From assembly GCA_965178125.1 (NCBI GenBank), contig OZ237761.1:310001-374000 (forward strand): a stretch of 64,000 bases of DNA, read 5' to 3'. A program made the position numbers and the translations under genes. Positions within the stretch are counted from its first letter, which is position 1. Each line of letters starts with the position of its first letter. Shown here piece after piece: positions 20,662 through 55,507 of the stretch. The notes below the pieces were generated by a model. That model did not search any database, was not told the origin of the DNA, and saw nothing but the letters and a program-made list of their open reading frames with translations. The DNA is from Bilabrum cf. latius (lineage: Eukaryota).

Positions 20662-23600
20662 TCACACCCGCGCCTGCATGGGATTGGAGTCGGCAAAGGT
20701 GCTCCCTTGCTGCACCTTAATGGTCAGGTCCCTGCCGGTGCCCGCGTTGACCTGCTGCATCTTCCGCGCATCCTGGTGCTTGGCACCGCTGCTGCCGCAC
20801 ATCCAGTAGTAAACCCCGCCGCAGATGCACAGAAGAACAAGGGCGCCGATGATACCCCCGATGAGAGGTGCCAGCGAGCCCCCGTCCTCGTCGTCATCTA
20901 CTGGCTCCGCGTCCTCGCGCGTCCCCGCGGCCTGCGCCACGACCACGTCCTCGGTCTGCACAGCCGTCTGGATCTCCATGGCGGATGAATCCACCGACAG
21001 GCGCGATGCGAGGGCAGGTACGGCCGCCTGCAGGTCCTCGAGCAGCCCGTTTCCACCCCTCGTTGAGTTGCTCTGCACGTAGGCCGTCACGCTGGCCTGG
21101 GCCGCGACCACGTCCACAGACTCGTCGAAGCGCAGAGATGTGTCCACCTCGATGGCAGGCGAGGCTGAAGCGGCCTGCACGCGGCGCCCCGTCGCTGCAG
21201 TGCCGCTCACCTCCGCGACCTCGTTGATGATGGCCTCGATGGCGCCTGTCCTCTCCACGAGCTTGGCCTTGTACGGCTCGGCCAGCGTGTCGAGGAACTG
21301 CGTGGGGGTGACCCCCTGAATCTTGAGGGCAGCCACCTCCACGTAGGCACCCTTGGGCTTGATCGCGGGGCTGCACATGCCTCTGGCCTCGGAGCAGACC
21401 AGCTCGCCCTGGCAGTTCTCGGCCGACAAGCAACCGAATCCCTGGGCGCACAGCCCACACTCGCCCTCTAGCTCAAAGCCGCAGTCCAGGCCGGTCTCAT
21501 CCCCGTTGAGCTGTCCATCGAAACAGGTTGGCTCTGCCTCCTCCGGGATCTACTCGGTACACGAGCCCGCGGCGTCCCGGAGCCAGCCCGGGTCGCAGAA
21601 GCACTCGTACCCAGCGGTCGAAGTCTCAGTGTCAAAGCAGACGCCGTTGCCGCAAGGCTCATCAGCGCACGGCCCCTATATCACCGCGACCTGGCAGAGG
21701 TCGCCCTCGAACAGATCGGATGCGCACTCGCACGTGAAGTCAATGCCCTTGCCGGAGGAGCAAGTAGCCCCGTTGCGGCACGGGTTGGGCACGCACGGGT
21801 CTGAGGTCGAGCTGGTCTGATCGTCATCTAGCTCCTCCACAAAGTCATCGACAGACGTGTCGTCCAGAAGCGTATCATCGGATAGCACGGCAGAGCAGAT
21901 GCCGCCGTCGGCAATCTCGTTTGCCACCATCATCCTCGTAGTCTCGGTGAGGCCAGCTTCAAGATCGGTGCCCATGCATCCGGTGATGGCCGCCTGTGCC
22001 CTACCGAGAGGGTGTTCGGCCAGCGGATGGAGGTAGATGCTTCCCCCGGCTGCAACCTCGATGCCAGTGCATGCAAGGGTCGGCGTCTCGACAAGTGGCT
22101 GGCCCTTCCCGTCCACTTCACCACTATGCGGCATGTCGACCAGCAGGAGCACTACGGCCCTGCTGCCGTCCTCGCTTCTGGATGCAGCGACCGGTGTCTG
22201 CACTGACAGAATCTCGGCGATACCACCGCCTTGGAGGAGTCGAGTTTGCCCAGACGAGCCCTCATCATCTCCAGCACTTGCCGCGGTTCCACTCAATGAG
22301 GTGATCGTTCCAATATCCTCTACGCAAAGCGTAGTGGGGTCTCCCCCCTACAACTATACAAGTTCCCAGCTGCCGCCAAAGAACTGTCCCAGAACTTGCC
22401 CTGCCGCAGCACCGCTCGCTGCTCCATCAGGCACAGTTGCATTTTCAAGTATCTTCTGGACCAGTTCGTCGCCTCCAAGACCATCTTCGAAGTCACCGAA
22501 GTCATCTTCGTCATTCTCATCGTCGTCGTCGTGGCTATCATCGTCGTCGTCGTGACCGGCATCGTCGTCGTCGTGACCGGCATCGTCGTCGTCGTGACCG
22601 GCATCGTCGTCGTCGTGACCAGCATCGTCGTCGTCGTGACCAGCATCGTCGTCGTCGTGACCAGCATCGTCGTCGTCGTGACCGGCATCGTCGTCGTCGT
22701 CGTGGCTACCACTCACAATGTCAGTGCAGTTCACCGCCTTGTTCGAGACCAGCCCCCCATCCGGTGAGACGAACGGACCGACCAAGAGCTTCTCGGCGTA
22801 CGCCGCGCACTTGATCTGTGCCTCCACGTTATCGTCGTACTGCACGTCAGGCATGTACAGGCCGTATCCGCCGAGGTTGTCAGAGCGGAATAGCACACAG
22901 CCGAAGCTCGCGGCAGCCGGCTGGCCCGAAGAAGACCCCTGCTTCCCGTCATCGTCATCGCCATCGCTGTGGTCATCATCGTGGTCCTCGTAGTCCATCT
23001 GAATGGCCAGCAGGTGCTCCTTGTTGCTCCCGAGCGGCTCCCATGCCGTGAAAGCGCTCTCGCCCACTTCTCCATCGGAGCTGATGTAGAACGTGCCGCT
23101 GCTTGCACAAGCCTGGCTCTGCTCCATATCAGGCAGAGACGCGTCGTATCCAGTTGGGAAGTAGCTGTCGAAGACGTCCATCTTGCTGGTCCAGTTGTAC
23201 TTGCTGCTGCCGCCCGCGAAGGCATCGTCATCGACACCGTCAAAATCGTCATCGTCGCCTGCATCGGTGAAGATCATATCGCACACTCCCTCCTGCGCCT
23301 CGTTGCGATGCCCAGACATTGTCATCGTGTTGGCGGTCAGCTCGTCGAAGGCCCTGCCCATGCATGATTGTCCCGCCTCGGCCACATCGTCTAGGCCCCA
23401 CGAGTCCAAGGTGTGCACCTGCACCGTGCTGCCGTCGGATCCGATCACCATGCCCGCGCACGACAGCTCGAAGTCCGTGCCGTCCGACTCGATGAACAGC
23501 ACCAGGTGCGTGCCAGTCTCGACCGTGTCGGTCCGAAGGGCCAGGGGGATCATGGTGGTCACGCTCACGCTAAACTGCTACAAGCGGCGGCGCAAGACAC

Positions 23601-26600
23601 TGTCAGAGCCAGTGCTAGAGCCCGAGCCCCAGCTGCTTCCGTTGGAGTCGTGGCCGTCCCATCCAGGACCCCAGTCGCCCCCGCTGCCCACGTCGCCTGA
23701 GATCATCACGATGGTGCCGTTGGAGTCCACGCACACCACATACGACTCTCCATCGGTGCTGTTGAGCTCCCACGCACCCTCGAGGGCGGCTCCTAGCTGC
23801 TGCATAGCCAGCTCGGCGATGAGGGATCCAGCGGTCAGGTTGGCTCCGGCCAGATCATGGATCAGCTCATCGAGGCCCGCATCGTCGTCGTCGTGACCGG
23901 CATCGTCGTCGTCGTCGTGACCGGCATCGTCGTCGTCGTCGTGGCTACCACTCACAATGTCAGTGCAGTTCACCGCCTTGTTCGAGACCAGCCCCCCATC
24001 CGGTGAGACGAACGGACCGACCAAGAGCTTCTCGGCGTACGCCGCGCACTTGATCTGTGCCTCCACGTTATCGTCGTACTGCACGTCAGGCATGTACAGG
24101 CCGTATCCGCCGAGGTTGTCAGAGCGGAATAGCACACAGCCGAAGCTCGCGGCAGCCGGCTGGCCCGAAGAAGACCCCTGCTTCCCGTCATCGTCATCGC
24201 CATCGCTGTGGTCATCATCGTGGTCCTCGTAGTCCATCTGAATGGCCAGCAGGTGCTCCTTGTTGCTCCCGAGCGGCTCCCATGCCGTGAAAGCGCTCTC
24301 GCCCACTTCTCCATCGGAGCTGATGTAGAACGTGCCGCTGCTTGCACAAGCCTGGCTCTGCTCCATATCAGGCAGAGACGCGTCGTATCCAGTTGGGAAG
24401 TAGCTGTCGAAGACGTCCATCTTGCTGGTCCAGTTGTACTTGCTGCTGCCGCCCGCGAAGGCATCGTCATCGACACCGTCAAAATCGTCATCGTCGCCTG
24501 CATCGGTGAAGATCATATCGCACACTCCCTCCTGCGCCTCGTTGCGATGCCCAGACATTGTCATCGTGTTGGCGGTCAGCTCGTCGAAGGCCCTGCCCAT
24601 GCATGATTGTCCCGCCTCGGCCACATCGTCTAGGCCCCACGAGTCCAAGGTGTGCACCTGCACCGTGCTGCCGTCGGATCCGATCACCATGCCCGCGCAC
24701 GACAGCTCGAAGTCCGTGCCGTCCGACTCGATGAACAGCACCAGGTGCGTGCCAGTCTCGACCGTGTCGGTCCGAAGGGCCAGGGGGATCATGGTGGTCA
24801 CGCTCACGCTAAACTGCTACAAGCGGCGGCGCAAGACACTGTCAGAGCCAGTGCTAGAGCCCGAGCCCCAGCTGCTTCCGTTGGAGTCGTGGCCGTCCCA
24901 TCCAGGACCCCAGTCGCCCCCGCTGCCCACGTCGCCTGAGATCATCACGATGGTGCCGTTGGAGTCCACGCACACCACATACGACTCTCCATCGGTGCTG
25001 TTGAGCTCCCACGCACCCTCGAGGGCGGCTCCTAGCTGCTGCATAGCCAGCTCGGCGATGAGGGATCCAGCGGTCAGGTTGGCTCCGGCCAGATCATGGA
25101 TCAGCTCATCGAGGCCCGCATCGTCGTCGTCGTGACCGGCATCGTCGTCGTCGTCGTGACCGGCATCGTCGTCGTCGTCGTGGCTACCACTCACAATGTC
25201 AGTGCAGTTCACCGCCTTGTTCGAGACCAGCCCCCCATCCGGTGAGACGAACGGACCGACCAAGAGCTTCTCGGCGTACGCCGCGCACTTGATCTGTGCC
25301 TCCACGTTATCGTCGTACTGCACGTCAGGCATGTACAGGCCGTATCCGCCGAGGTTGTCAGAGCGGAATAGCACACAGCCGAAGCTCGCGGCAGCCGGCT
25401 GGCCCGAAGAAGACCCCTGCTTCCCGTCATCGTCATCGCCATCGCTGTGGTCATCATCGTGGTCCTCGTAGTCCATCTGAATGGCCAGCAGGTGCTCCTT
25501 GTTGCTCCCGAGCGGCTCCCATGCCGTGAAAGCGCTCTCGCCCACTTCTCCATCGGAGCTGATGTAGAACGTGCCGCTGCTTGCACAAGCCTGGCTCTGC
25601 TCCATATCAGGCAGAGACGCGTCGTATCCAGTTGGGAAGTAGCTGTCGAAGACGTCCATCTTGCTGGTCCAGTTGTACTTGCTGCTGCCGCCCGCGAAGG
25701 CATCGTCATCGACACCGTCAAAATCGTCATCGTCGCCTGCATCGGTGAAGATCATATCGCACACTCCCTCCTGCGCCTCGTTGCGATGCCCAGACATTGT
25801 CATCGTGTTGGCGGTCAGCTCGTCGAAGGCCCTGCCCATGCATGATTGTCCCGCCTCGGCCACATCGTCTAGGCCCCACGAGTCCAAGGTGTGCACCTGC
25901 ACCGTGCTGCCGTCGGATCCGATCACCATGCCCGCGCACGACAGCTCGAAGTCCGTGCCGTCCGACTCGATGAACAGCACCAGGTGCGTGCCAGTCTCGA
26001 CCGTGTCGGTCCGAAGGGCCAGGGGGATCATGGTGGTCACGCTCACGCTAAACTGCTACAAGCGGCGGCGCAAGACACTGTCAGAGCCAGTGCTAGAGCC
26101 CGAGCCCCAGCTGCTTCCGTTGGAGTCGTGGCCGTCCCATCCAGGACCCCAGTCGCCCCCGCTGCCCACGTCGCCTGAGATCATCACGATGGTGCCGTTG
26201 GAGTCCACGCACACCACATACGACTCTCCATCGGTGCTGTTGAGCTCCCACGCACCCTCGAGGGCGGCTCCTAGCTGCTGCATAGCCAGCTCGGCGATGA
26301 GGGATCCAGCGGTCAGGTTGGCTCCGGCCAGATCATGGATCAGCTCATCGAGGCCCGCATCGTCGTCGTCGTGACCGGCATCGTCGTCGTCGTCGTGACC
26401 GGCATCGTCGTCGTCGTCGTGGCTACCACTCACAATGTCAGTGCAGTTCACCGCCTTGTTCGAGACCAGCCCCCCATCCGGTGAGACGAACGGACCGACC
26501 AAGAGCTTCTCGGCGTACGCCGCGCACTTGATCTGTGCCTCCACGTTATCGTCGTACTGCACGTCAGGCATGTACAGGCCGTATCCGCCGAGGTTGTCAG

Positions 26601-29600
26601 AGCGGAATAGCACACAGCCGAAGCTCGCGGCAGCCGGCTGGCCCGAAGAAGACCCCTGCTTCCCGTCATCGTCATCGCCATCGCTGTGGTCATCATCGTG
26701 GTCCTCGTAGTCCATCTGAATGGCCAGCAGGTGCTCCTTGTTGCTCCCGAGCGGCTCCCATGCCGTGAAAGCGCTCTCGCCCACTTCTCCATCGGAGCTG
26801 ATGTAGAACGTGCCGCTGCTTGCACAAGCCTGGCTCTGCTCCATATCAGGCAGAGACGCGTCGTATCCAGTTGGGAAGTAGCTGTCGAAGACGTCCATCT
26901 TGCTGGTCCAGTTGTACTTGCTGCTGCCGCCCGCGAAGGCATCGTCATCGACACCGTCAAGATCGTCATCGTCGCCTGCATTGGTGAAGATCATATCGCA
27001 CACTCCCTCCTGCGCCTCGTTGCGATGCCCAGACATTGTCATCGTGTTGGCGGTCAGCTCGTCGAAGGCCCTGCCCGTGCATGATTGTCCCGCCTCGGCC
27101 AGATCGGCAAGGTCCCACAAGCCCAGCGCGTGGAACTGCACCGTGCTGCCGTCGGATCCGATCACCATGCCCGCGCACGACAGCTCGAAGTCCGTGCCGT
27201 CCGACTCGATGAACAGCACCAGGTGCGTACCAGTCTCGACCGTGTCGGTCCGAAGGGCCAGGGGGATCATGGTGGTCACGCTCACGCCCGAGCCCCAGTC
27301 GCTTCCGTTGCCCGTGCCCACGTCGCCTGAGAGCATCACGATGGTACCATTGGAGTCCACGCACGCCACATGCGTGCCTCCGTCGGTGCTGTTGAGGTCC
27401 CAGGCGCCCTGGGAGGCTCCCAGCTCCTGCATGGCCAGCTCGCCGATGAGGGATCCAGCGGTCAGGTTGGCTCCGGCCAGATCATGGATCATGTCAAGAA
27501 GGCCGGCATCATCGTCATTGCCGCCGTCAAGATCGTCATCGTCGCCTGCATCGGTGAAGAACGGACCGCACACTCCCTCCTGCGCCTCGTTGCGATGCCC
27601 AGACATTGTCATCGTGTTGGCGGTCAGCTCGTCGAAGGCCCTGCCCGTGCATGATTGTCCCGCCTCGGCCAGATCGGCAAGGTCCCACAAGCCCAGCGCG
27701 TGGAACTGCACCGTGCTGCCGTCGGATCCGATCACCATGCCCGCGCACGACAGCTCGAAGTCCGTGCCGTCCGACTCGATGAACAGCACCAGGTGCGTAC
27801 CAGTCTCGACCGTGTCGGTCCGAAGGGCCAGGGGGATCATGGTGGTCACGCTCACGCCCGAGCCCCAGTCGCTTCCGTTGCCCGTGCCCACGTCGCCTGA
27901 GAGCATCACGATGGTACCATTGGAGTCCACGCACGCCACATGCGTGCCTCCGTCGGTGCTGTTGAGGTCCCAGGCGCCCTAGGAGGCTCCCAGCTCCTGC
28001 ATGGCCAGCTCGCCGATGAGGGATCCAGCGGTCAGGTTGGCTCCGGCCAGATCATGGAACATGTCAAGAAGGCCGGCATCATCGTCATTGCCGCCGTCAA
28101 GATCGTCATCGTCGCCTGCATCGGTGAAGATCATATCGCACACTCCCTCCTGCGCCTCGTTGCGATGCCCAGACATTGTCATCGTGTTGGCGGTCAGCTC
28201 GTCGAAGGCCCTGCCCATGCATGATTGTCCCGCCTCGGCCAGATCGGCAAGGTCCCACAAGCCCAGCGCGTGGAACTGCACCGTGCTGCCGTCGGATCCG
28301 ATCACCATGCCCGCGCACGACAGCTCGAAGTCCGTGCCGTCCGACTCGATGAACAGCACCAGGTGCGTACCAGTCTCGACCGTGTCGGTCCGAAGGGCCA
28401 GGGGGATCATGGTGGTCACGCTCACGCCCGAGCCCCAGTCGCTTCCGTTGCCCGTGCCCACGTCGCCTGAGAGCATCACGATGGTACCATTGGAGTCCAC
28501 GCACGCCACATGCGTGCCTCCGTCGGTGCTGTTGAGGTCCCAGGCGCCCTGGGAGGCTCCCAGCTCCTGCATGGCCAGCTCGCCGATGAGGGATCCAGCG
28601 GTCAGGTTGGCTCCGGCCAGATCATGGATCATGTCAAGAAGGCCGGCATCATCGTCATTGCCGCCGTCAAGATCGTCATCGTCGCCTGCATCGGTGAAGA
28701 ACGGACCGCACACTCCCTCCTGCGCCTCGTTGCGATGCCCAGACATTGTCATCGTGTTGGCGGTCAGCTCGTCGAAGGCCCTGCCCGTGCATGATTGTCC
28801 CGCCTCGGCCAGATCGGCAAGGTCCCACAAGCCCAGCGCGTGGAACTGCACCGTGCTGCCGTCGGATCCGATCACCATGCCCGCGCACGACAGCTCGAAG
28901 TCCGTGCCGTCCGACTCGATGAACAGCACCAGGTGCGTACCAGTCTCGACCGTGTCGGTCCGAAGGGCCAGGGGGATCATGGTGGTCACGCTCACGCCCG
29001 AGCCCCAGTCGCTTCCGTTGCCCGTGCCCACGTCGCCTGAGAGCATCACGATGGTACCATTGGAGTCCACGCACGCCACATGCGTGCCTCCGTCGGTGCT
29101 GTTGAGGTCCCAGGCGCCCTAGGAGGCTCCCAGCTCCTGCATGGCCAGCTCGCCGATGAGGGATCCAGCGGTCAGGTTGGCTCCGGCCAGATCATGGATC
29201 ATGTCAAGAAGGCCGGCATCATCGTCATTGCCGCCGTCAAGATCGTCATCGTCGCCTGCATCGGTGAAGAACGGACCGCACACTCCCTCCTGCGCCTCGT
29301 TGCGATGCCCAGACATTGTCATCGTGTTGGCGGTCAGCTCGTCGAAGGCCCTGCCCATGCATGATTGTCCCGCCTCGGCCAGATCGGCAAGGTCCCACAA
29401 GCCCAGCGCGTGGAACTGCACCGTGCTGCCGTCGGGTCCGATCACCATGCCCACGCACGACAGCTCGGAGTCCGTGCCGTCCGACTCGATGAACAGCACC
29501 AGGTGCGTGCCAGTCTCGACCGTGTCGGTCCGAAGGGCCAGGGGGATCATGGTGGTCACGCTCACGCCCGAGCCCCAGTCGCTTCCGTTGCCCGTGCCCA

Positions 29601-31005
29601 CGTCGCCTGAGAGCATCACGATGGTACCATTGGAGTCCACGCACGCCACATGCGTGCCTCCGTCGGTGCTGTTGAGGTCCCAGGCGCCCTAGGAGGCTCC
29701 CAGCTCCTGCATGGCCAGCTCGCCGATGAGGGATCCAGCGGTCAGGTTGGCTCCGGCCAGATCATGGAACATGTCAAGAAGGCCGGCATCATCGTCATTG
29801 CCGCCGTCAAGATCGTCATCGTCGCCTGCATCGGTGAAGATCATATCGCACACTCCCTCCTGCGCCTCGTTGCGATGCCCAGACATTGTCATCGTGTTGG
29901 CGGTCAGCTCGTCGAAGGCCCTGCCCATGCATGATTGTCCCGCCTCGGCCAGATCGGCAAGGTCCCACAAGCCCAGCGCGTGGAACTGCACCGTGCTGCC
30001 GTCGGGTCCGATCACCATGCCCGCGCACGACAGCTCGGAGTCCATGCCTTCCGATTCGATGAACAGCACCAGGTGCGTGCCAGTCTCGACCGTGTCGGTC
30101 CGAAGGGCCAGGGGGATCATGGTGGTCACGCTCACGTTCCAGCCCCATGTGCTTCCGTTGCCGCCGGTGGATCCATTGGAGTCGTGACCGTCCCATCCAG
30201 GACCCCAGTCGCCCCCGCTGCCCACGTCGCCTGAGAGCATCACGATGGTACCATTGGAGTCCACGCACGCCACATGCGTGCCTCCGTCGGTGCTGTTGAG
30301 GTCCCAGGCGCCCTAGGAGGCTCCCAGCTCCTGCATGGCCAGCTCGCCGATGAGGGATCCAGCGGTCAGGTTGGCTCCGGCCAGATCATGGAACATGTCA
30401 AGGAAGCCGGCACTGCCACCATTGGCGTCACCATCATGTTCGTTATCCTCAGCCGAAAAGAATTCGTTGTCGCCGGTCAGCTGGGCGCACACCGCAGGTG
30501 TACCATCTTCTGCTTTAAACGTCCGGCTTGTGTCCAGGAGATTCGCGTAGTCGCGCTGCATGCAGCTGCTCAGCGCTTCCTGTGCCTCGGACTGGTTCCA
30601 GGAACCCAGCTCGTGGAAGTAGACGGCTTCATCTGTGTTTTCGATCCCCTCGCAGGACAGGCTTACGTTCTGCTGTCCTGGTGCCTCTACGGCGAAGAGC
30701 ACTGCAGCACCTGTCTCTCCGTCGGTTGCAACCGCGAGCACGTGCTTGCGCGTGTCGCTCGACGCGTCGAAGCTCGTCGCTCCGGGCGACACCACGAGCA
30801 TGGTGCCGTTTCCATCTATGCAAGCGACATGCTTGTCTTGGTTCTGGTCGGTCGTCGTAAAATTCCAAGCGCCACCGAGCTGCTCGCCTGCAAACTCGCG
30901 TGCCACTTGGCCGACCATGGCACCGCTCGGAGCTGCGGCCGGGCCAAAAATGTCTTCGTACGATATCGCCGTGGCAGTGCCTTGGAGGACAATCGCTGCA
31001 GTCAT
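20662..31005 (-). CDS. Giant (~3450 aa) acidic repetitive cell-surface protein with tandem 190-aa and 413-aa modules, two EGF-like domains, a Cys-rich CxDGxxNGDETxxDCG module and a C-terminal TM helix
   Basis: The ORF-track pieces from 30313-31272 down to 20662-21429 share one frame and are separated only by TAG. EGF-like: DPCVPNPCRNGATCSSGKGIDFTCEC and PCADEPCGNGVC..YECFCDPGW. TM: LIGGIIGALVLLCICGGVYYW. Ends at TGA 20662. The start is uncertain (possible upstream exon). Confidence 0.85.
22539..22704. repeat. 21-bp coding minisatellite encoding (GHDDDDA)n, ~8 units
   Basis: Tandem copies of CATCGTCGTCGTCGTGACC(G/A)G. Confidence 0.9.
22680..27080. repeat. 1239-bp near-identical tandem repeat (~3.5 copies; 413 codons each)
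   Basis: Identical ORFs recur at 22718, 23957, 25196 and 26435, and stops recur at 23578, 24817 and 26056 (spacing 1239). Boundaries approximate. Confidence 0.92.
26960..30410. repeat. 570-bp near-identical tandem repeat (~6 copies; 190 codons each), sharing a core with the 1239-bp unit
   Basis: ORFs recur at 27085, 27655, 28225, 28795, 29365 and 29935 (spacing 570). Boundaries approximate. Confidence 0.92.
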
Positions 31006-32619
31006 TGCTGCTATGGCTGCGAGGTGAAAGTAAATTCGATTCGGAGGGGCTGCAAATGTGGCCGGGGTGCCGAGACATCGCCGGACCTTGGCCTGTTTGG
31101 TCCACAAATCGCGCCTCAGCTGATTTAGCGGATCAAAGCATGTGCACGTCGCATTCATCCTAAGACTATTGACAACAGAGCATAGAGCAACAATTATACG
31201 TTTCACGCTGTTTAAAGCGCAAAAGGCCTCCATTCTAGCAAGGTTGGCTCGGCTTTTTGCTAGATCTAGCACGTCGCGTCGAGTGTGCTTGCTCCTTGTT
31301 CAGCCAGAATCCTGCACGCAGTGCAAGCTGCAGTGAAACACTGCTACTGTTTCAAATCGTTACAATTATTTTCTCTGGCTCTTGCACCTTGCGTGATCAT
31401 ATTGGAAGCCAGGATTGCCTCGCAGCCTCAGAGCCGGCAGGCGTGCGCTTGTGCCGACGTCAGGTGCCAAGCAAGCTACCCAACAGGGTTCTGCAAGCAC
31501 AAGTCCGACGCAATCGATTGTTTGATTAATCTCACCCAGCATCATTACCGCAGCAATCAGCAAGTCTGCTGGTGTATGTGTGGCGAATCGGCGACTCGCA
31601 CAGTGCCCTGGACCCCGCCGGGGGTCTCCCGGAGGGGTGGGCCACCGGCGTTCCCCTGGGGGTCACGGCCCGTACCAGTGGGGTCCTTTCCGGTATGATT
31701 GCTCGAAAAACCACGATTCTCTTGCTTGCTTGCACATCTTCGAAGACAAGGAATGGTATGCATGATGGGCGAAAGTTCCAATAACTAAACGTGTATTCCT
31801 GGAGCACAGCACACCGCCGGCGACGGAACCAGTTGCAGCGGCACGAAACAGAGGTGATTACCTTGAAATGTTCAGCGTAGAGCTCTGGAACCAGAGGAAT
31901 TTTGCAACTTCGCCTGAGGGCTATCAATTTCGCGAGGCCGTCGTATGTACGGAGACACTCGCCAGGTGCATCGCTAGAGACGCAGAAAGAGACCGGAGCA
32001 ATCAACTCCTGAAGTGGAGCCGGATACAACGGAAAAAGAGGCCGCGCCACCAACGGCTATCAACACGCTCACCCGTGAGATGTGCATGTTGACCTATTTC
32101 GTTCGTTGGTGAGGCCAGCAAGGTCTCTGAGATTGAGGTCGCGCGGTGGGCGCAGGACCCGTTCGAGGTGCAGGAGCAGATGCGACGTTGCGATGCGGAG
32201 GAGTGAGAGAGAGAGAGAAAGCGGCTAGGGATGCAGACCAGGAGCGGCGGCGACGCGGGGTGGGCGACGGATGTAAAGGGGGGTGGTGTGGGTGGAGCAG
32301 AGAGAGAGAAGGCGATAGATGGGCGGGGGGGCAAAGCAGGGAGGAGGGGGGGGACGGCGGTTCACCAAGTGGGGAGGAAGTAGTGGAGGAGAAGATGAGT
32401 GGTGGGGTCATCGGGTTGATACGGCGGATAGAAAGGGGGAGGCATAGGCCGGGCAGGTGGGGGTTTGGGCATGTGGGGGACGAGTGACTCGGATCAGGGG
32501 GGATCGGATCACCCGACCACATGCGGATGTGGAAGTTGAGAGGTCACAAATAGACTCGAGCGGCAATCAAGCCGCGTGCTATTCGGGCGCTGAGGGGCAG
32601 CGCTCGCCAGTTTTCTTTT

Positions 32620-33400
32620 TGGTAACTTTGAGGATGGGCTCTTGGAGGAAACCAACAGCAACCATGTGTGACTGTCTGCGAGATTAGGGTGCTGTGTACA
32701 ACGTGTGATCTCAAGCGCACATTAGCCCTCTGACGAGCCAGGTAAAATCGGAGGAGTGCGCAATCACCACCGGCCCAGGCCACGCCGAGATCGACAAGAC
32801 CAAGGCCCAGAGAGGGGCCAGTGGCGGCCGAGCCGCTGCTGCAGGAGAGCCACCGGACGTTGAGGCGGAAGGGGCCACCAAAGCGGAGGAAAGAGCTGCT
32901 ATGGGCAGGCGTCCAGGAGATAGAGAGACGGAGGTCCAGGAGATAGAAAGACGGAGGGCGCTGTGTGGGACAGGCCTCGGGACGACCCCGGAGATGGATG
33001 GCCCGATGAGAGCGGCGAGAAGAGCACGAGCGGTTTCCAATAGTATGCGGAGCGGACCCTCATGAAGATCGTGCAGGAGGCGACAGTGCAAGAGACACCC
33101 AGGGAGATCAGCACGGTGGATACCGAGGACAGAAACGACTCGGTTGACATCATCATGGCGAGGGACGGCGAGAAACCTATCCACGTGGACGTCACCACGA
33201 TAGACCCGGCCGCAAGGGAGAGGCAGTTCGGGAATGAGAGGGGGATAGGCACCAGTGACCGATAGGCCCACAGGTTGAGGTCGATAGCGAAGAGGACCCA
33301 GGCCATCTCCCAGGACGTTGCAGTCCTGGCTATAGGGCGCCTAGGTTGTGGGGCGCGCGGGCCGGGGCTGCCACTGGCACGAGGATGTGACGAGCTCGAA
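32620..33400 (+). mobile_element. Probable decayed non-LTR retrotransposon 3' fragment (CRE/RLE-endonuclease type)
   Basis: Motifs in order but in shifting frames: LVTLRMG..MCDC, GGVRNHH, PVAAEPLL, DSVDIIMARDGEKPIHVDVTTIDP, RSIAKRTQ..VAVLAIGRLG. These resemble the Zn-knuckle and restriction-like endonuclease of CRE-type elements. No RT domain seen; recognition is by eye. Confidence 0.35.
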
Positions 33401-33664: not shown

Positions 33665-36600
33665 ATGCCGAGTGGAATGCCGCGGAATGACAGCAAGAAT
33701 GAGCGGCAGCATGCTCGATGGCTGTATGAGTGTGCAGACAAACTAAGACAGTGCAAACGCGAGGTTGGGTGGCTAGGCTCCGTAAGACGAACCAGATCAT
33801 ATTGTCCAGTGACTACTTCATTCCAATCGAAACAGGCGTATGGCACAGTCATGTTCTCGACTGCAACACTTTCATTGGCTTCGGCGCTATTAAACGGCCT
33901 CGCAGTTTACTGACCAGGAGATGGAGACAACGTATCGCGCGTACAAGCCTGATTGTTAGACTCGGAAGTATTACTGGGTGTTTCCATCCATTTGCATGTC
34001 GTCAGGCATTACCATTGTCGCAGCGGTTTCCTGTCTCTTGCGTTCAATCCTTCACGCCACCGCCTGGGACAGGGCAACCTTTGTTCCAGATCGAGTAGGC
34101 AGGTCTGTACCATCTGAAGTATATGGTATCGACAGCAAACCGGTGGACGGCGCCCGCTTAGTTGGATGGGAAGCACTTCTCGGGGTGGGTTGTGGGTCTG
34201 CCATCGCCGCAGCGCTTCTATCCGCTGTTGTAGCGATCGGATGCACCGCCAGTTAGCCGGATCCTTTGAAGCTTGATGGCTTGGATTCTGAAATGTCAAT
34301 GCTACGATCGTCATAGCTCCGGTGGCGAAGGCAGCTCATTGCGATTTCGCTGTCGGTGTGCACCTGCGGCCTGATACTCCAAGAAGCGCTCCTCGGTGGC
34401 GGGGGAGGAGCTGGGTGCCTGGTTCCAGCGCTGATTGTTGCGGCAGCATCCGCAATTCTCGGCCTGGACGACGCGTCGCTGCTGCTTTGGAACACGGTGC
34501 TTCCGTTCGCCGTGTGTGCAACTGGAAGCGTTGTTGTCGACGGAGCACTGCAGGCAGGCAGTGCCCCCGTCCTGCGGGATCCAGTGGCTAGTGCGACCGA
34601 TGGTCTCTGTGCCGTTCTTCTTGTCCTTGTCGCGCTGGCCGGGGCCGTGGTGCAGGCCTCCAGGGAACGGGTCCGCTTCAGCGAGCTGATCGACTCGGAA
34701 TCAAAGCGCTCGTCCATCGCAAAGAGCTACAGGGTCGTCAAGCGGATCTCCATGGCCCACTCGGACCCCGCAACGGCTGCAGCCGCTGCCACCACGGGTG
34801 CCGACACGGCGAGAACCGGTACCGTGTCCACCACCGGCTCTGCTGGCACGGCGGGCACTGGCACGAGCGGAAAGGCGGCACGAGCCGGTGGTGCCGCCGC
34901 GGCGATGGAAATGATGGACCCGGCAGCGGAGCTCGGGCCGGGCACCGAGCTGACCGAGGAGGAAATGTCCCTGTCACCCATGCAGCTGGCCCTCAGGCGA
35001 CTCAAGGAAATCTCGAGGGAGGAGCCCAGGATCAGGGAACAAATCGAGGACCTGGTGACCATCGTGCTGGAGAACACGGCACATGGGGGGAACAGCGACG
35101 CCGGCAGGGGTGGGGGGTGGACGCCGTCGGGGGGAAAAGGAGTGGGTGACGCGCTGGAGGCCACGGTGCGGGGCACGCTGCAACGAGCTGCCAAACTGGA
35201 GATGATGAGAAAGAGGAGGCGAGAGGCCATCAGCGGCAAGCAATCCAACTCTGCGTCCGATGCCTCGATCGAGTCGAAGCAGGCAGCGGGATGGGGTGCT
35301 GCGGCGGGTGGCGCTGCTGCTGGAAGGCAGGCCATCATCGATGAGGAGCAAAAGCAGGGGCAGAGACAGGCGCAGCTGTTCGGTCCGGAGGGCGAAGCCT
35401 TGGACGGCCAGCCCTTCGAAATGGACCCCGGCACCAAGCAGTGGCTCGTGTCCATCCTAGCCCCATGGGAGCAGGATGAGCAGTCGAACCAGGGCCTCTC
35501 TCTAGAGGCAGGCAGCGCAGGGTCCTTTGCAGGAGTCGGGGCAGAGACTTCGCGCGGTTCCGGCCGCCCCGAGTCTGCTTCCAGTGGCAGCGTCACGCAC
35601 AGCACGGGCAGCCGATCAGGCGACGAGGGTGAGGCTGTACCCGGGCCGTCCGGAATGTCTGGCGTCTTGGCACCTTCCACCGGGGGCGGCATGCATCGAG
35701 CCCAGTCGCAGAAGACTAGTGGTGGGACGCTGCAGCCGCCGTCCATGCACAAGGCAACTTCTGACGGTGTCGCACTGGACAGTGGCGGGTCGGAGCAGTC
35801 CCCTCGTTCCGACCCGTTTGCGCAAAGACAGCCCATGGCAGTCAACGGTATGGGTGCATCATCGCATGGCGGTGCTAAAGCACAGAGCCAGAACAGGATG
35901 CTGCCCCGCTCGACAACGACCGCAGTCGCGCCTCGCTCCAACATCTTCGGAAGAGCGAAGGACGCCGCGACCGTGGAGAGGGCCTCTGGTGGCACACCAC
36001 GCCGAGAGAAGCGACGGCGGGGCAGCACAACAGGGGTGCACTCCCCACGGAAAGCATCTGCAGAAGTGGCTGGAGCTAACGGAAAGCCACCCAAGCCGCG
36101 GCGGCAGAGGCGGCTGTCAGCTCCCGTCGGAATGCGGTTCCGGAGGGTATTTGTATCGCTGGACGAGGACGAAACTCTCGTGCGTGTAGACCGTAGAGGT
36201 CGCAAGATCGGGCCGGCGGTGGACAGCGGAGCCTCTTCAAAGCCCTCAGAGCAGGGAGCTGATGTGAGCGCGCACAAGGAGTCCGGCATGCCCACCTCCA
36301 AGCCAACTGCGCCCACCTCGGACGGGTCATCAGGGATTACCGCAGTGGCCGTCAGCTCCGGTGGGGCAAGTACCTCCACAGAGGCCAACTCCAGGGCCGT
36401 TGCTGGCTCTCTGGCTGCGGAAGGTTCCTTGGGGCACACTGCCGGTGGATCGCAGCGGGCACCCGACAAGTCTTTCGTTTTGGTGCGGAAGGGGCCCGGC
36501 CCAACGGGCCCTGTGGCAGCCGCAGCCTCGCAGGCCCAGGTCACGAGGGGAAGCAGCCAAACGGAGCGAAGGAGCGCAAGCGATCCAGACGCATCACAGT

Positions 36601-51325: not shown

Positions 51326-52666
<1,341 letters not shown>

Positions 52667-52987
52667 TTTCGGTTAAACGAATTCTGTGAAATGATTGACT
52701 GCGCCGAGAGCGAATGCTGCGAACGGTTTCATTGGCGAGAAAAGACGCATCGGTCAGTATCGGTGCACGGCAAGATTGCTTGATAGACACCCCGTTGCTC
52801 GCGGCCACAGGGTACAGCAGCATAACGTCAATCAATTTCAGGCAAATTTTAAATCATATCTCACCTCTCTTACTGGCAGTGCCTCCTAGCTACAAATAAG
52901 CGACCGCTGGATTTCGTTGCACTCGGAGCGGCTCGTTGCACGGTTTGGCTGCATTGCATCGACTGCATACAATAACGTAAAAAGTTC
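52667..52987. promoter_or_regulatory. Putative bidirectional promoter between leuB and leuA
   Basis: 321-nt lower-GC spacer between two divergent start codons. Inferred from geometry only. Confidence 0.45.
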
Positions 52988-55507
52988 ATGCTCAGACTTG
53001 CATCCAATATACTTCGTAGGCATGCTGTGAGGCGTTGTATCGTTGCTGGTGGCAGGCAAGGCCAGGCAACTTGGCGACCCTTTTCAACTGCCCAGACCAA
53101 CGAAGCGGACCGCTTGATTGTGTTCGATACCACGCTTCGGGACGGTGAATAGTCCCCTGGTGCTACTTTGACATATAATGAAAAGCTGGCACTGGCTAGA
53201 TAGCTGGCGTGAGATCGTGCTGTGCCGTGTTTGGGCCTTTTCGGGAGCCTCGAGACAGATCTTACCGTTTGGTGTCTTGGTCTGAGCTAAGGTCCCGCAT
53301 ACTGCAGTTGGTATTGCATCAAATGACGATTATTCTTCATCCTACTGGTTGCTGCAATTTACGCGTTCAAAAAGCTCTAGGGCTTGCGTTCGAGGTCGTA
53401 GTCCACTGGTTGGCTGCGCTACCGAAGGGCGCCCCCCACCTCGTTTACAGTAGCTGCGGGCGAAGAATTGCAATCGCTTTCCCTCGCATCGAGGTGCCAA
53501 CTCTCTGTTCGTCAATTGCCCTCCTGCAGCGAGATCGTCTCAACTCTCCCCGTTGTGCCGCCCTACGTACGCAGGCTGCTCGGCGTCGATGTGTGCGAAG
53601 CGGGCTTTCCCATCGCAAGCGACGGAGACTTTGACGCAGTGCGCGCAGTAGCAACGGAAGTCGGGCCCCTGGTAGAGGGCCGGTCGGACGGCACTCCCAT
53701 GAGGATCGCAGGACTCGCAAGGGCACTCCCAAAGGACATTGAGCGGTGCCATGCCGCCGTCAGTGCGGCGCCGGTGCACAGAATCCACACGTTCCTGGCT
53801 ACATCCGACGTGCACCTCGAGCACAAGCTGAAGATTTCACGTCCAGAGTGCATCGAGCGGGCGGCGAACGCAGTGCGTCTCGCCAGAGGCCTCGTTGACT
53901 CTACCACCGATGGGGCGAGGGGCAAGCACGGGGATGTCGAGTTCTCTCCAGAGGACGCTGGCCGGTCAGATCCCGAGTTCCTGGTAGATGTGCTGACCGC
54001 TGTCATCGAGGCGGGTGGGACCACCCTCAACATCCCAGACACGGTCGGATTCGTCACACCGGGGGAGTATAAGGAGCTCTTCGCGCTCCTCCGCGCTCGC
54101 CTCCCGACCGAGTCGCCCATCGACGGCCGACCCATCATCCTGTCTACGCACGCGCACAACGACCTCGGCCTCGCCGTCGCAAACACGCTCGCTGGTGTTG
54201 AAGGGGGTGCCCGGCAGGTGGAGGTGACCATGAACGGGATCGGAGAGAGGGCGGGCAACGCTTCGCTCGAGGAGGTGGTCATGTCGATCCGAACCAGGCC
54301 GGAGAGGTTCCCGGTGCAGGCGCCCCAGATTGACACAACCCGGATCACCTCCACCTCGCGCCTCGTGTCTGCAGTGACCGGTATGGGCGTACAGCCCAAC
54401 AAGAGCATCGTGGGCGCAAACGCATTCGCTCACGAGTCGGGCATCCACCAGGACGGAGTGCTGAAGCACGCCGCAACCTACGAGATCCTCACACCCGAGA
54501 GCGTGGGGCTTGGCCGCAACAGCCTCGTGCTGGGCAAGCACAGCGGTCGGGCGGCCTACAGGCAGAGGCTGGAAGCACTCGGCTTCGGTGGACTCTCTGA
54601 CTCGCAGCTGAACGGATTCGTGCAGCGGTTTAAGACGCTCGCAGACACCAAGAAGAGTGTGAGCGACGCTGACATCCTGGCCATCGTGCAAGAAGGCATC
54701 GATTCGATCGTGCCGCTGGTGCAGCTGAGCGGCCTTCACGTGACGTGCGGCTCGGACGTCAAGCCGACCGCCACGGTGACTGTGATCGAAGCAGAAGGGG
54801 CTGTGGAGGAGGGCGAGGGCGACGGCGGAGAGATGCAGCACTCCTCTGCCGCCATTGGAAACGGTCCCATCGATGCTCTCTTCCGGGCGTTCGGCCTGAT
54901 CCCATGCCTGCCCGCGGCGGATCTGACAGACTTCGCGGTCCGGTCCGTCACGGACGGCCGAAAGGCTCTGGGCGAGGTGACAATCCGGCTGCGCCCGGCG
55001 GAGCACGGCGCCGGCGGGCAGCGAGACCTCTCTGGTCTGGAGGCGGTGAAGGCCTCCTTGGCTGACCCGCACACGGCCTCACCCAGGGACGGGGCGGGCG
55101 ACGACCACGATAGCGCGGCGGACGGGCTGCACAGCGACGACAAGAACTTCGAGGAGGCGCGGATGTCTAGCGCCGACGCGCTCGTGAGGTACTAGCAGGC
55201 AGTGGAGCGCAAGGAGCAGGAGAGGAGGAGGAGCATGGCAGGTGGAAGCGCCGATGCCGCCACCATGCTAGGTGAGGATCCCCTGACGTCAGAGGCGTCC
55301 GGTGTCGGTCTGTCCACCGACATCCTTCAGGCTGCGGCCAGGGCGTATCTCTCGGCTGCGAACCGCCTGCTGCACCGAGGAGTCCCGGCGAGGCGAGAGC
55401 TTGCGCGGCAGCAGGGTACCGCGGTTGACGGCGCGAATGGCGGCGTCGTAGCTGGTGCGCCGGTGTCTGCGAGGCGACCGACGCGTGGGGTCGAGGCTGC
55501 CATGTGA
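52988..55507 (+). CDS. leuA: 2-isopropylmalate synthase with a putative mitochondrial targeting peptide
   Basis: MLRLASNILRRHAVRR...PFST leader, then LIVFDTTLRDGE[TAG 53150]SPGATL..EKLALAR[TAG 53201]LA, intron 53209-53574, then LLGVDVCEAGFP, HAHNDLGLAVAN, GIGERAGNA, AFAHESGIHQDG and GNGPIDA. After TAG 55193 comes the regulatory-domain end GVGLSTDILQAAARAYLSAAN. Ends at TGA. Confidence 0.95.

Follow-up and report, generated by a model that had tools for sequence, protein, structure and literature searches.

UAG as a very probable glutamine codon in the nuclear genome of Bilabrum cf. latius, and a CUA-anticodon tRNA with a tyrosine-like acceptor stem

TAG and CAG alternate in a repeat gene

We analysed 64,000 nt of Bilabrum cf. 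latius DNA (assembly GCA_965178125.1, contig OZ237761.1, forward-strand positions 310,001 to 374,000), referred to as the window below. Its minus strand carries a long gene for an acidic repeat protein, in which TAG and CAG alternate at one codon of closely similar repeat units. Here we describe this gene together with the genome-wide evidence on what TAG encodes. The gene and its features are as follows:

20662..31299, minus strand: acidic repeat protein gene; frame of 3,545 codons with TAG read through, TGA end, 11 in-frame TAG
30313..30315, minus strand: TAG, repeat unit 1, between identical 15-base flanks
29689..29691, minus strand: TAG, repeat unit 2, between identical 15-base flanks
29119..29121, minus strand: TAG, repeat unit 3, between identical 15-base flanks
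28549..28551, minus strand: CAG, repeat unit 4, between identical 15-base flanks
27979..27981, minus strand: TAG, repeat unit 5, between identical 15-base flanks
27409..27411, minus strand: CAG, repeat unit 6, between identical 15-base flanks
27185..29180, minus strand: exact higher-order duplication holding both CAG alleles; lag 1,140 bp, 0 differences over 855 bp
22651..26328, minus strand: three 413-codon units with 0, 5 and 5 codon differences over 400 codons; one TAG each (26056, 24817, 23578)
21550..22356, minus strand: four further in-frame TAG (22354, 22348, 21676, 21550), matched by run X1 contigs with 0 differences

The product comprises six short acidic repeats, the three 413-codon repeats, an EGF region (residues 3169-3199) and a hydrophobic segment near the C-terminus. 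The Met at 31005, where a hydrophobic stretch begins, is the inferred start codon, from which the gene counts ~3,447 codons. A first-pass annotation of the window had described an intact frame with an EGF end and an alternation of four TAG and two CAG between identical flanks; both descriptions are accurate, the latter at all six positions. The 570-bp unit spacing that it gave applies to most sites, but the first two lie 624 bp apart.

The same annotation took the alternation as an internal control that identifies the residue without outside homologues. An alignment of the six units does not bear this out. Positions 27185-28040 are identical to 28325-29180, and both CAG sit inside this duplication, so that they represent a single T/C change and the six codons are not independent. 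Among short units 2-6, the residue is altered at 8 of the 9 other variable codons, and unit 1 differs from unit 2 by 11 non-synonymous codons and one synonymous codon. The toggling codon itself is GAG (Glu) in three longer units and encodes Gly in two diverged end units. As changes in the array are mostly non-synonymous, the toggle is no proof of synonymy in the absence of outside evidence, and we discarded it as such: the array shows that TAG is tolerated, not what it means. The proposed synonymous Gln change finds its support in the rest of the genome, not in the repeats.

Read-derived support came from contigs of four runs, none of which spans any of the six array codons; three of the runs barely cover the gene. 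Contigs of run X1, which is possibly the source sample, match five other TAG of this gene with 0 differences, four of them in 21320-22568 and the fifth in 23541-23846. The repeat had no second match anywhere in the assembly, and a repeat unit gave no usable match in the ESM Atlas.

TAG is used within genes across the genome

Read through at TAG only, 18 of 19 dynein stretches are open over 3,224-3,333 codons, while one is interrupted by TGA after 2,404 codons. These 19 genes hold 270 TAG in 61,982 codons. Seven dyneins terminate just past a shared C-terminal motif, six with TGA and one with TAA. Since 18 of the 19 stretches are free of both TAA and TGA, and genes end at TGA or, in few cases, TAA, these two codons remain stops.

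All 13 long frames of the window contain in-frame TAG (81 in total, counted from the first Met); eight of them have Pfam matches. In a small sample of 39 loci of 10 kb, drawn from 39 other contigs and combined with the window, TAG was present in 56 of 70 frames and in 33 of 40 sources. Closed frames (n = 55) end in TGA (49) or TAA (6). TAG accounts for 7 of 1,650 terminal codons (the last 30 of each frame), 207 of 56,382 body codons and 26 of 1,650 flank triplets past the stop; it is neither enriched nor depleted before gene ends (4.2 vs 3.7 per 1,000 in terminal and body codons). In-frame TAG also occurs in eRF1, GluRS, prohibitin and DDX41. A code in which TAA is read as Gln as well (UAR = Gln, table 6, as in Tetrahymena and hexamitids) was not seen in the dyneins, the sampled frames or eRF1. 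Neither was context-dependent stop/sense use of the Condylostoma or Blastocrithidia type, since TAG, in this small sample, shows no sign of ending genes or of depletion before their ends. That TAG is a sense codon is virtually certain.

TAG use varies among the dyneins (L057-L075) from 1 in 3,224 to 48 in 3,333 codons, and TAG is frequent in window genes with low GC at third codon positions. A rare codon with a single tRNA gene to decode it would be expected to show such a pattern. One 2,896-codon frame lacks TAG altogether (L152, G000:C60:1-10000, on a 29.9-kb contig).

Other window features considered below are:

51326..52672, minus strand: 3-isopropylmalate dehydrogenase (LeuB) gene, with three TAG within its Pfam domain
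53327..55507, plus strand: isopropylmalate synthase-like gene, with TAG at codon 623
33782..33905, plus strand: intron of a phosphodiesterase gene, 124 nt, GT..AG, skipped by a run X5 contig
33957..33959, plus strand: in-frame TAG of the phosphodiesterase gene, unchanged in the spliced run X5 contig

Conserved positions point to glutamine

To assign a residue to TAG, we compared the 19 dynein genes with 120 homologues, leaving L076 and the second frame of L070 out of the tally. At columns at least 90% conserved, TAG (n = 42) stands opposite Q in 29 cases, E in 7, R in 2 and S, V, G and K in one each, and opposite Y in none. Ordinary codons gave comparable fractions at such columns (CAG opposite Q, 326/474; CAA opposite Q, 35/54; TAC opposite Y, 343/439). 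A likelihood test on the 165 of 270 dynein TAG with at least 60 aligned residues (the 105 with fewer were set aside) returned +75.8 log-likelihood units for Q and −106.7 for the runner-up, E; applied to ordinary codons, it assigned 61 of 61 correctly. The residue profile of TAG correlates with those of CAA (0.95) and CAG (0.94), and at 0.71 or less with that of any other codon. Beyond the dyneins, one eRF1 TAG site is Q in 83 of the 84 homologues that have the motif, and both aligned TAG of DDX41 lie opposite Q in the best structure match. The TAG of RPB2 fall outside its aligned part and contribute no residue comparison. From these alignments, UAG very probably encodes Gln in the nuclear genome, with UAA and UGA kept as stops.

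A tRNA gene with anticodon CUA

One tRNA gene whose anticodon would read UAG was found in the assembly:

G000:C23:907607-907679: tRNA gene, anticodon CUA; 69.8 bits, second of 48 Rfam matches

It is single-copy, folds into a cloverleaf (z = −2.7) and is followed by a T run. Four pattern searches and 22 rechecked candidates yielded no other CUA or UUA tRNA, with Rfam scoring covering 63 of 780 candidates. The ARAGORN rechecks comprised 17 of 34 matches from one pattern search and 5 of 6 from another; none was called at the default setting or with the threshold at 90%, and the two weak intron-type calls that appeared at 80% carried anticodons other than CUA or UUA.

We then compared stems across 28 distinct nuclear tRNAs. 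The CUA tRNA matches tRNA-Tyr(GTA) at 12 of 14 acceptor-stem bases, including C1-G72, and at 8 of 10 anticodon-stem bases. This sum of 20/24 is reached by none of the 335 pairs of different isotype, for which the highest value is 17/24. The two tRNAs also share a 5-base variable loop. The corresponding stems match those of the glutamine tRNAs at 12/24 (Gln(CTG)) and 6/24 (Gln(TTG)) bases, while the D stem (8/8), the T loop and G73 agree with tRNA-Gln(TTG). The origin from a tRNA-Gln predicted by Panek et al. is therefore not what this stem comparison indicates.

For published codes and tRNA identity, we drew here and below on PMC11687900, PMC11412368, PMC9161772, PMC6972860, PMC10120064, PMC5304391 and PMC9976931. 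Eukaryotic Tyr determinants are given as A73, C1-G72, G34 and U35, and the accessible part of the same source lists no tested eukaryotic Gln determinants (PMC9976931). It further describes E. coli amber suppressors that combine CUA with G73 or an altered 1-72 pair and take Gln, on bodies derived from Lys, Asn, Ser, Trp and fMet tRNAs (PMC9976931).

Among amber suppressors, Tyr su3 is a further case of Gln insertion.

Whether the CUA tRNA is Tyr-derived or chimeric and now charged with Gln is, on its stems, close to evenly balanced; convergence or an undetected second CUA gene would undo such an origin. In one specific scenario, a tRNA-Tyr gene was duplicated, its anticodon became CUA, its Tyr discriminator was replaced (A73 to G) and its D arm became Gln-type, so that GlnRS would now charge it. 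The combined proposal, a first variant nuclear code for stramenopiles that arose by such a switch from Tyr to Gln identity, has in our view somewhat less than an even chance. If true, the assumed source of UAG = Gln, a mutated tRNA-Gln, would not apply, and a UAG = Tyr stage may lie in the past of the lineage.

Changes in the eRF1 N domain

One eRF1 gene was found, plus a pelota-like gene. The eRF1 gene has 436 codons, carries two in-frame TAG within its N domain and ends in TAA. Its in-frame TAG imply that eRF1 synthesis itself needs UAG to be read through. We considered autoregulation of eRF1 via these codons and dropped it, since a gene of 436 codons would be expected to hold about this many TAG at the genome rate of 3.7 per 1,000.

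In human numbering, eRF1 shows S60V in the TASNIKS motif, L69Q, and N129S with K130H in YxCxxxF. The GTS motif is unchanged, but the two residues before it are AD, whereas 79 of 84 homologues carry GN there. Among 95 homologues, V60 occurs in one, Q69 in six, S129 in four and H130 in none. A Leu69 change is tied to UAG read-through by Panek et al. (PMC5304391). With these substitutions, eRF1 may recognise UAG poorly. The eRF1 of P0248 has S129 only, in the part of the sequence compared.

The organism and the spread of the code

The closest named matches of the organism are from Cafeteria roenbergensis (dynein, 66%; eRF1, 69%). In a tree of 33 of the 120 dynein homologues (1,143 columns, FastTree only), it is sister to the Cafeteria clade with a support of 1.00. 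On this placement, we read it as a bicosoecid.

A metagenome contig (L122) encodes two leucine enzymes, 79% and 85% identical to those of the window. In the window, the leucine biosynthesis genes stand head to head (51326-55507), and L122 keeps this arrangement. At the three TAG sites of LeuB, its orthologue has AGA, CAG and TAG, and the orthologue of the isopropylmalate synthase-like gene has CAG at the codon 623 site. L122 thus shares one TAG codon with the window, has CAG at two sites where the window has TAG, carries one private TAG and closes with TGA. It supplies the TAG/CAG control across gene copies and indicates that the code spans a clade. The metagenome comparison rests on L122, as eight of the 9 loci are distant (47-50%). 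Two further proteins, P0001 and P0002, both end exactly at TAG sites of the organism, P0001 (90%, protein sequence only) at the second LeuB TAG. Gene calling under the standard code therefore truncates proteins of this clade.

Weighing the readings of UAG

Several observations weigh against a plain Gln assignment. E is commoner at TAG than at CAG dynein columns (Fisher p = 0.014; against CAA columns, p = 0.76). The commonest residues at the three LeuB TAG sites are R (40 of 120 homologues, the site being mostly R/M), M (104) and S (94), with Q found in 20, in 2 and not among the residues listed. A GluRS TAG in the catalytic domain (L121, G000:C15) stands opposite W and Y in two structures, prohibitin TAG opposite S/N and D, and the TAG site at eRF1 position 69 is L in 89 of 95 homologues and Q in six. 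Single sites outside the dyneins point in different directions, as such sites often do. The 70 sampled frames are a small set chosen by a codon model, not by annotation. The sole CUA tRNA found has a Tyr-like acceptor stem. Finally, L69Q and N129S also occur in the eRF1 of relatives P0244, P0246 and P0247, which show no sign of recoding here, so that these two changes are neither diagnostic nor sufficient markers of recoding.

The tRNA and the GluRS site could instead mean that UAG is read wholly or partly as Tyr, the CUA tRNA being a tRNA-Tyr altered at the first base of its anticodon but still charged by TyrRS. Its 20/24 stem match including C1-G72, against at most 17 between different isotypes, and the W or Y opposite one GluRS TAG are in line with this. 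At the conserved dynein columns, though, Y is found opposite 0 of 42 TAG, with a mean share that is no higher at TAG (0.006) than at CAG columns (0.008), and of the four eukaryotic Tyr determinants given in PMC9976931 the CUA tRNA is missing two, A73 and G34; we regard this reading as very improbable. The seven Glu among the 42 conserved TAG columns, and the few genes whose true ends were checked, leave a small chance for an ambiguous UAG that is mostly Gln but also terminates near transcript ends or partly inserts Glu. The Glu excess is matched at CAA columns, the last 30 codons show neither an excess nor a shortage of TAG, and the checked ends use TGA (six dyneins) or TAA (one dynein, eRF1).

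An unchanged code with U-to-C RNA editing of UAG to CAG would produce the same Gln signal in alignments. It is extremely unlikely in view of the intact CUA tRNA and of the spliced run X5 contig that keeps TAG at 33957, the latter being one site in one contig, with contigs dropping rare variants. The reading as a decaying repeat gene, with TAG as nonsense alleles or as errors in the consensus, has a practically negligible probability. It could draw on the lack of contigs spanning the array codons and on an array that tolerates many amino-acid changes, but it is refuted genome-wide: TAG is held by 13 of 13 long window frames, by eRF1, the dyneins, GluRS, prohibitin and DDX41, and one TAG recurs at the same codon in a relative that was assembled separately.

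Under the favoured assignment of UAG to Gln, the CUA tRNA would be charged with Gln and decode UAG but not UAA, while the eRF1 N-domain changes (S60V, L69Q, N129S, K130H, and GN to AD) would weaken UAG recognition. The array toggle would then be one synonymous change spread by duplication, and the gene would yield a full-length membrane protein.

With such a code, UAG would have been uncoupled from UAA once more, independently, in a large lineage. As a GC-rich, TGA-terminating genome beside the standard-code model Cafeteria, this one allows the code change to be bracketed on the tree. It also offers a long-contig assembly with tRNA, eRF1 and GlnRS genes, the last on G000:C33 near 559 kb, which the available portions of accounts of earlier UAG = Gln cases lack. 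Two questions become testable: the source of stop-reading tRNAs, and how eRF1 drops UAG alone.

Further features of the assembly

A second 18S gene of 1,802 nt (G000:C95:6099-7900; L031, L150) differs from the 1,700-nt array on contig C12. It lies on a 17.9-kb contig, C95, between low-complexity flanks. The gene looks dinoflagellate-like, so that some contigs of the assembly may be foreign.

On the mitochondrial contig (G000:C111, L052-L055; 38,401 bp), every one of the 21 long frames includes TGA and is closed by TAA; the contig also encodes a tRNA whose anticodon is TCA. A UGA = Trp code is reported for Cafeteria mitochondria, and these features agree with it.

Within the window, contig depth is very high over an intergenic element at 32100-32710, of which each of the four runs contains many variant copies; it is probably a dispersed repeat or a small mobile element. 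Two nuclear tRNA-Ile genes (L008, L045) have the anticodon GAT, while tRNA-Ile in eukaryotes is usually AAT. An AT-rich family of Met(CAT) and Pro(TGG) tRNAs (L022, L037, L041, L048-L050) is alike in its acceptor stems and D arms. In three of the copies T37 is present and the first position does not pair; the DNA around L022 has a GC content of 33%. This family is possibly carried by inserted elements.

Comparison with known variant codes

A variant nuclear code in a stramenopile was not found in the literature on stramenopiles, bicosoecids, Cafeteria, Halocafeteria, protists and mischarged suppressors, a search that covered few subscription journals, and a term search of preprint 10.64898/2026.07.28.741278 gave no match; the code may already be named in the genome's public record. 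UAG = Gln with UAA as a stop is reported, in PMC5304391 and PMC11687900, for Iotanema spirale, Hartmannula sinica, Trochilia petrani and Protocruzia tuzeti. Other reported UAG-only codes are UAG = Leu in the rhizarian exLh and some ciliates, and UAG = Ser in Scotinosphaera.

Iotanema (Panek et al. 2017, PMC5304391; once NCBI code 15) has the same assignment, UAG = Gln with UAA and UGA as stops, likewise inferred from conserved positions. It is a fornicate from an unrelated lineage, with UAA as its main stop, whereas TGA ends 49 of 55 frames here. Its eRF1 has T32G in the GTS motif that is intact here, and for its CUA tRNA there was only a prediction of descent from tRNA-Gln(CUG), whereas here the gene is found and is Tyr-like in two stems. 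H. sinica, T. petrani and P. tuzeti are ciliates that likewise reassign UAG alone to Gln (McGowan et al. 2024, PMC11687900). For the first two, that study detected no suppressor tRNA; in ciliates with UAG = Leu, it describes CUA tRNAs that resemble tRNAs of the inserted amino acid. In exLh and Scotinosphaera, UAG is likewise uncoupled from UAA, with other amino acids and in other lineages. The eRF1 of exLh changes Leu69 to Ala, a position that is TAG/Gln here. The Gln-inserting amber suppressors of E. coli in PMC9976931 also combine CUA with G73 or an altered 1-72 pair on non-Gln bodies, though they are engineered and bacterial.

Compared with its closest named relative, the organism departs in several respects. 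The dynein of Cafeteria roenbergensis, deposited with 4,210 aa, has Q at 10 of 22 of the organism's TAG sites. Its eRF1 keeps S60, L69 and N129, all three of which are changed here. Its genome is 34-36 Mb with ~70% GC, against an assembly of 48.6 Mb and ~60% GC in the window. The type of code is thus already known, while the lineage and the Tyr-like CUA tRNA appear to be new.

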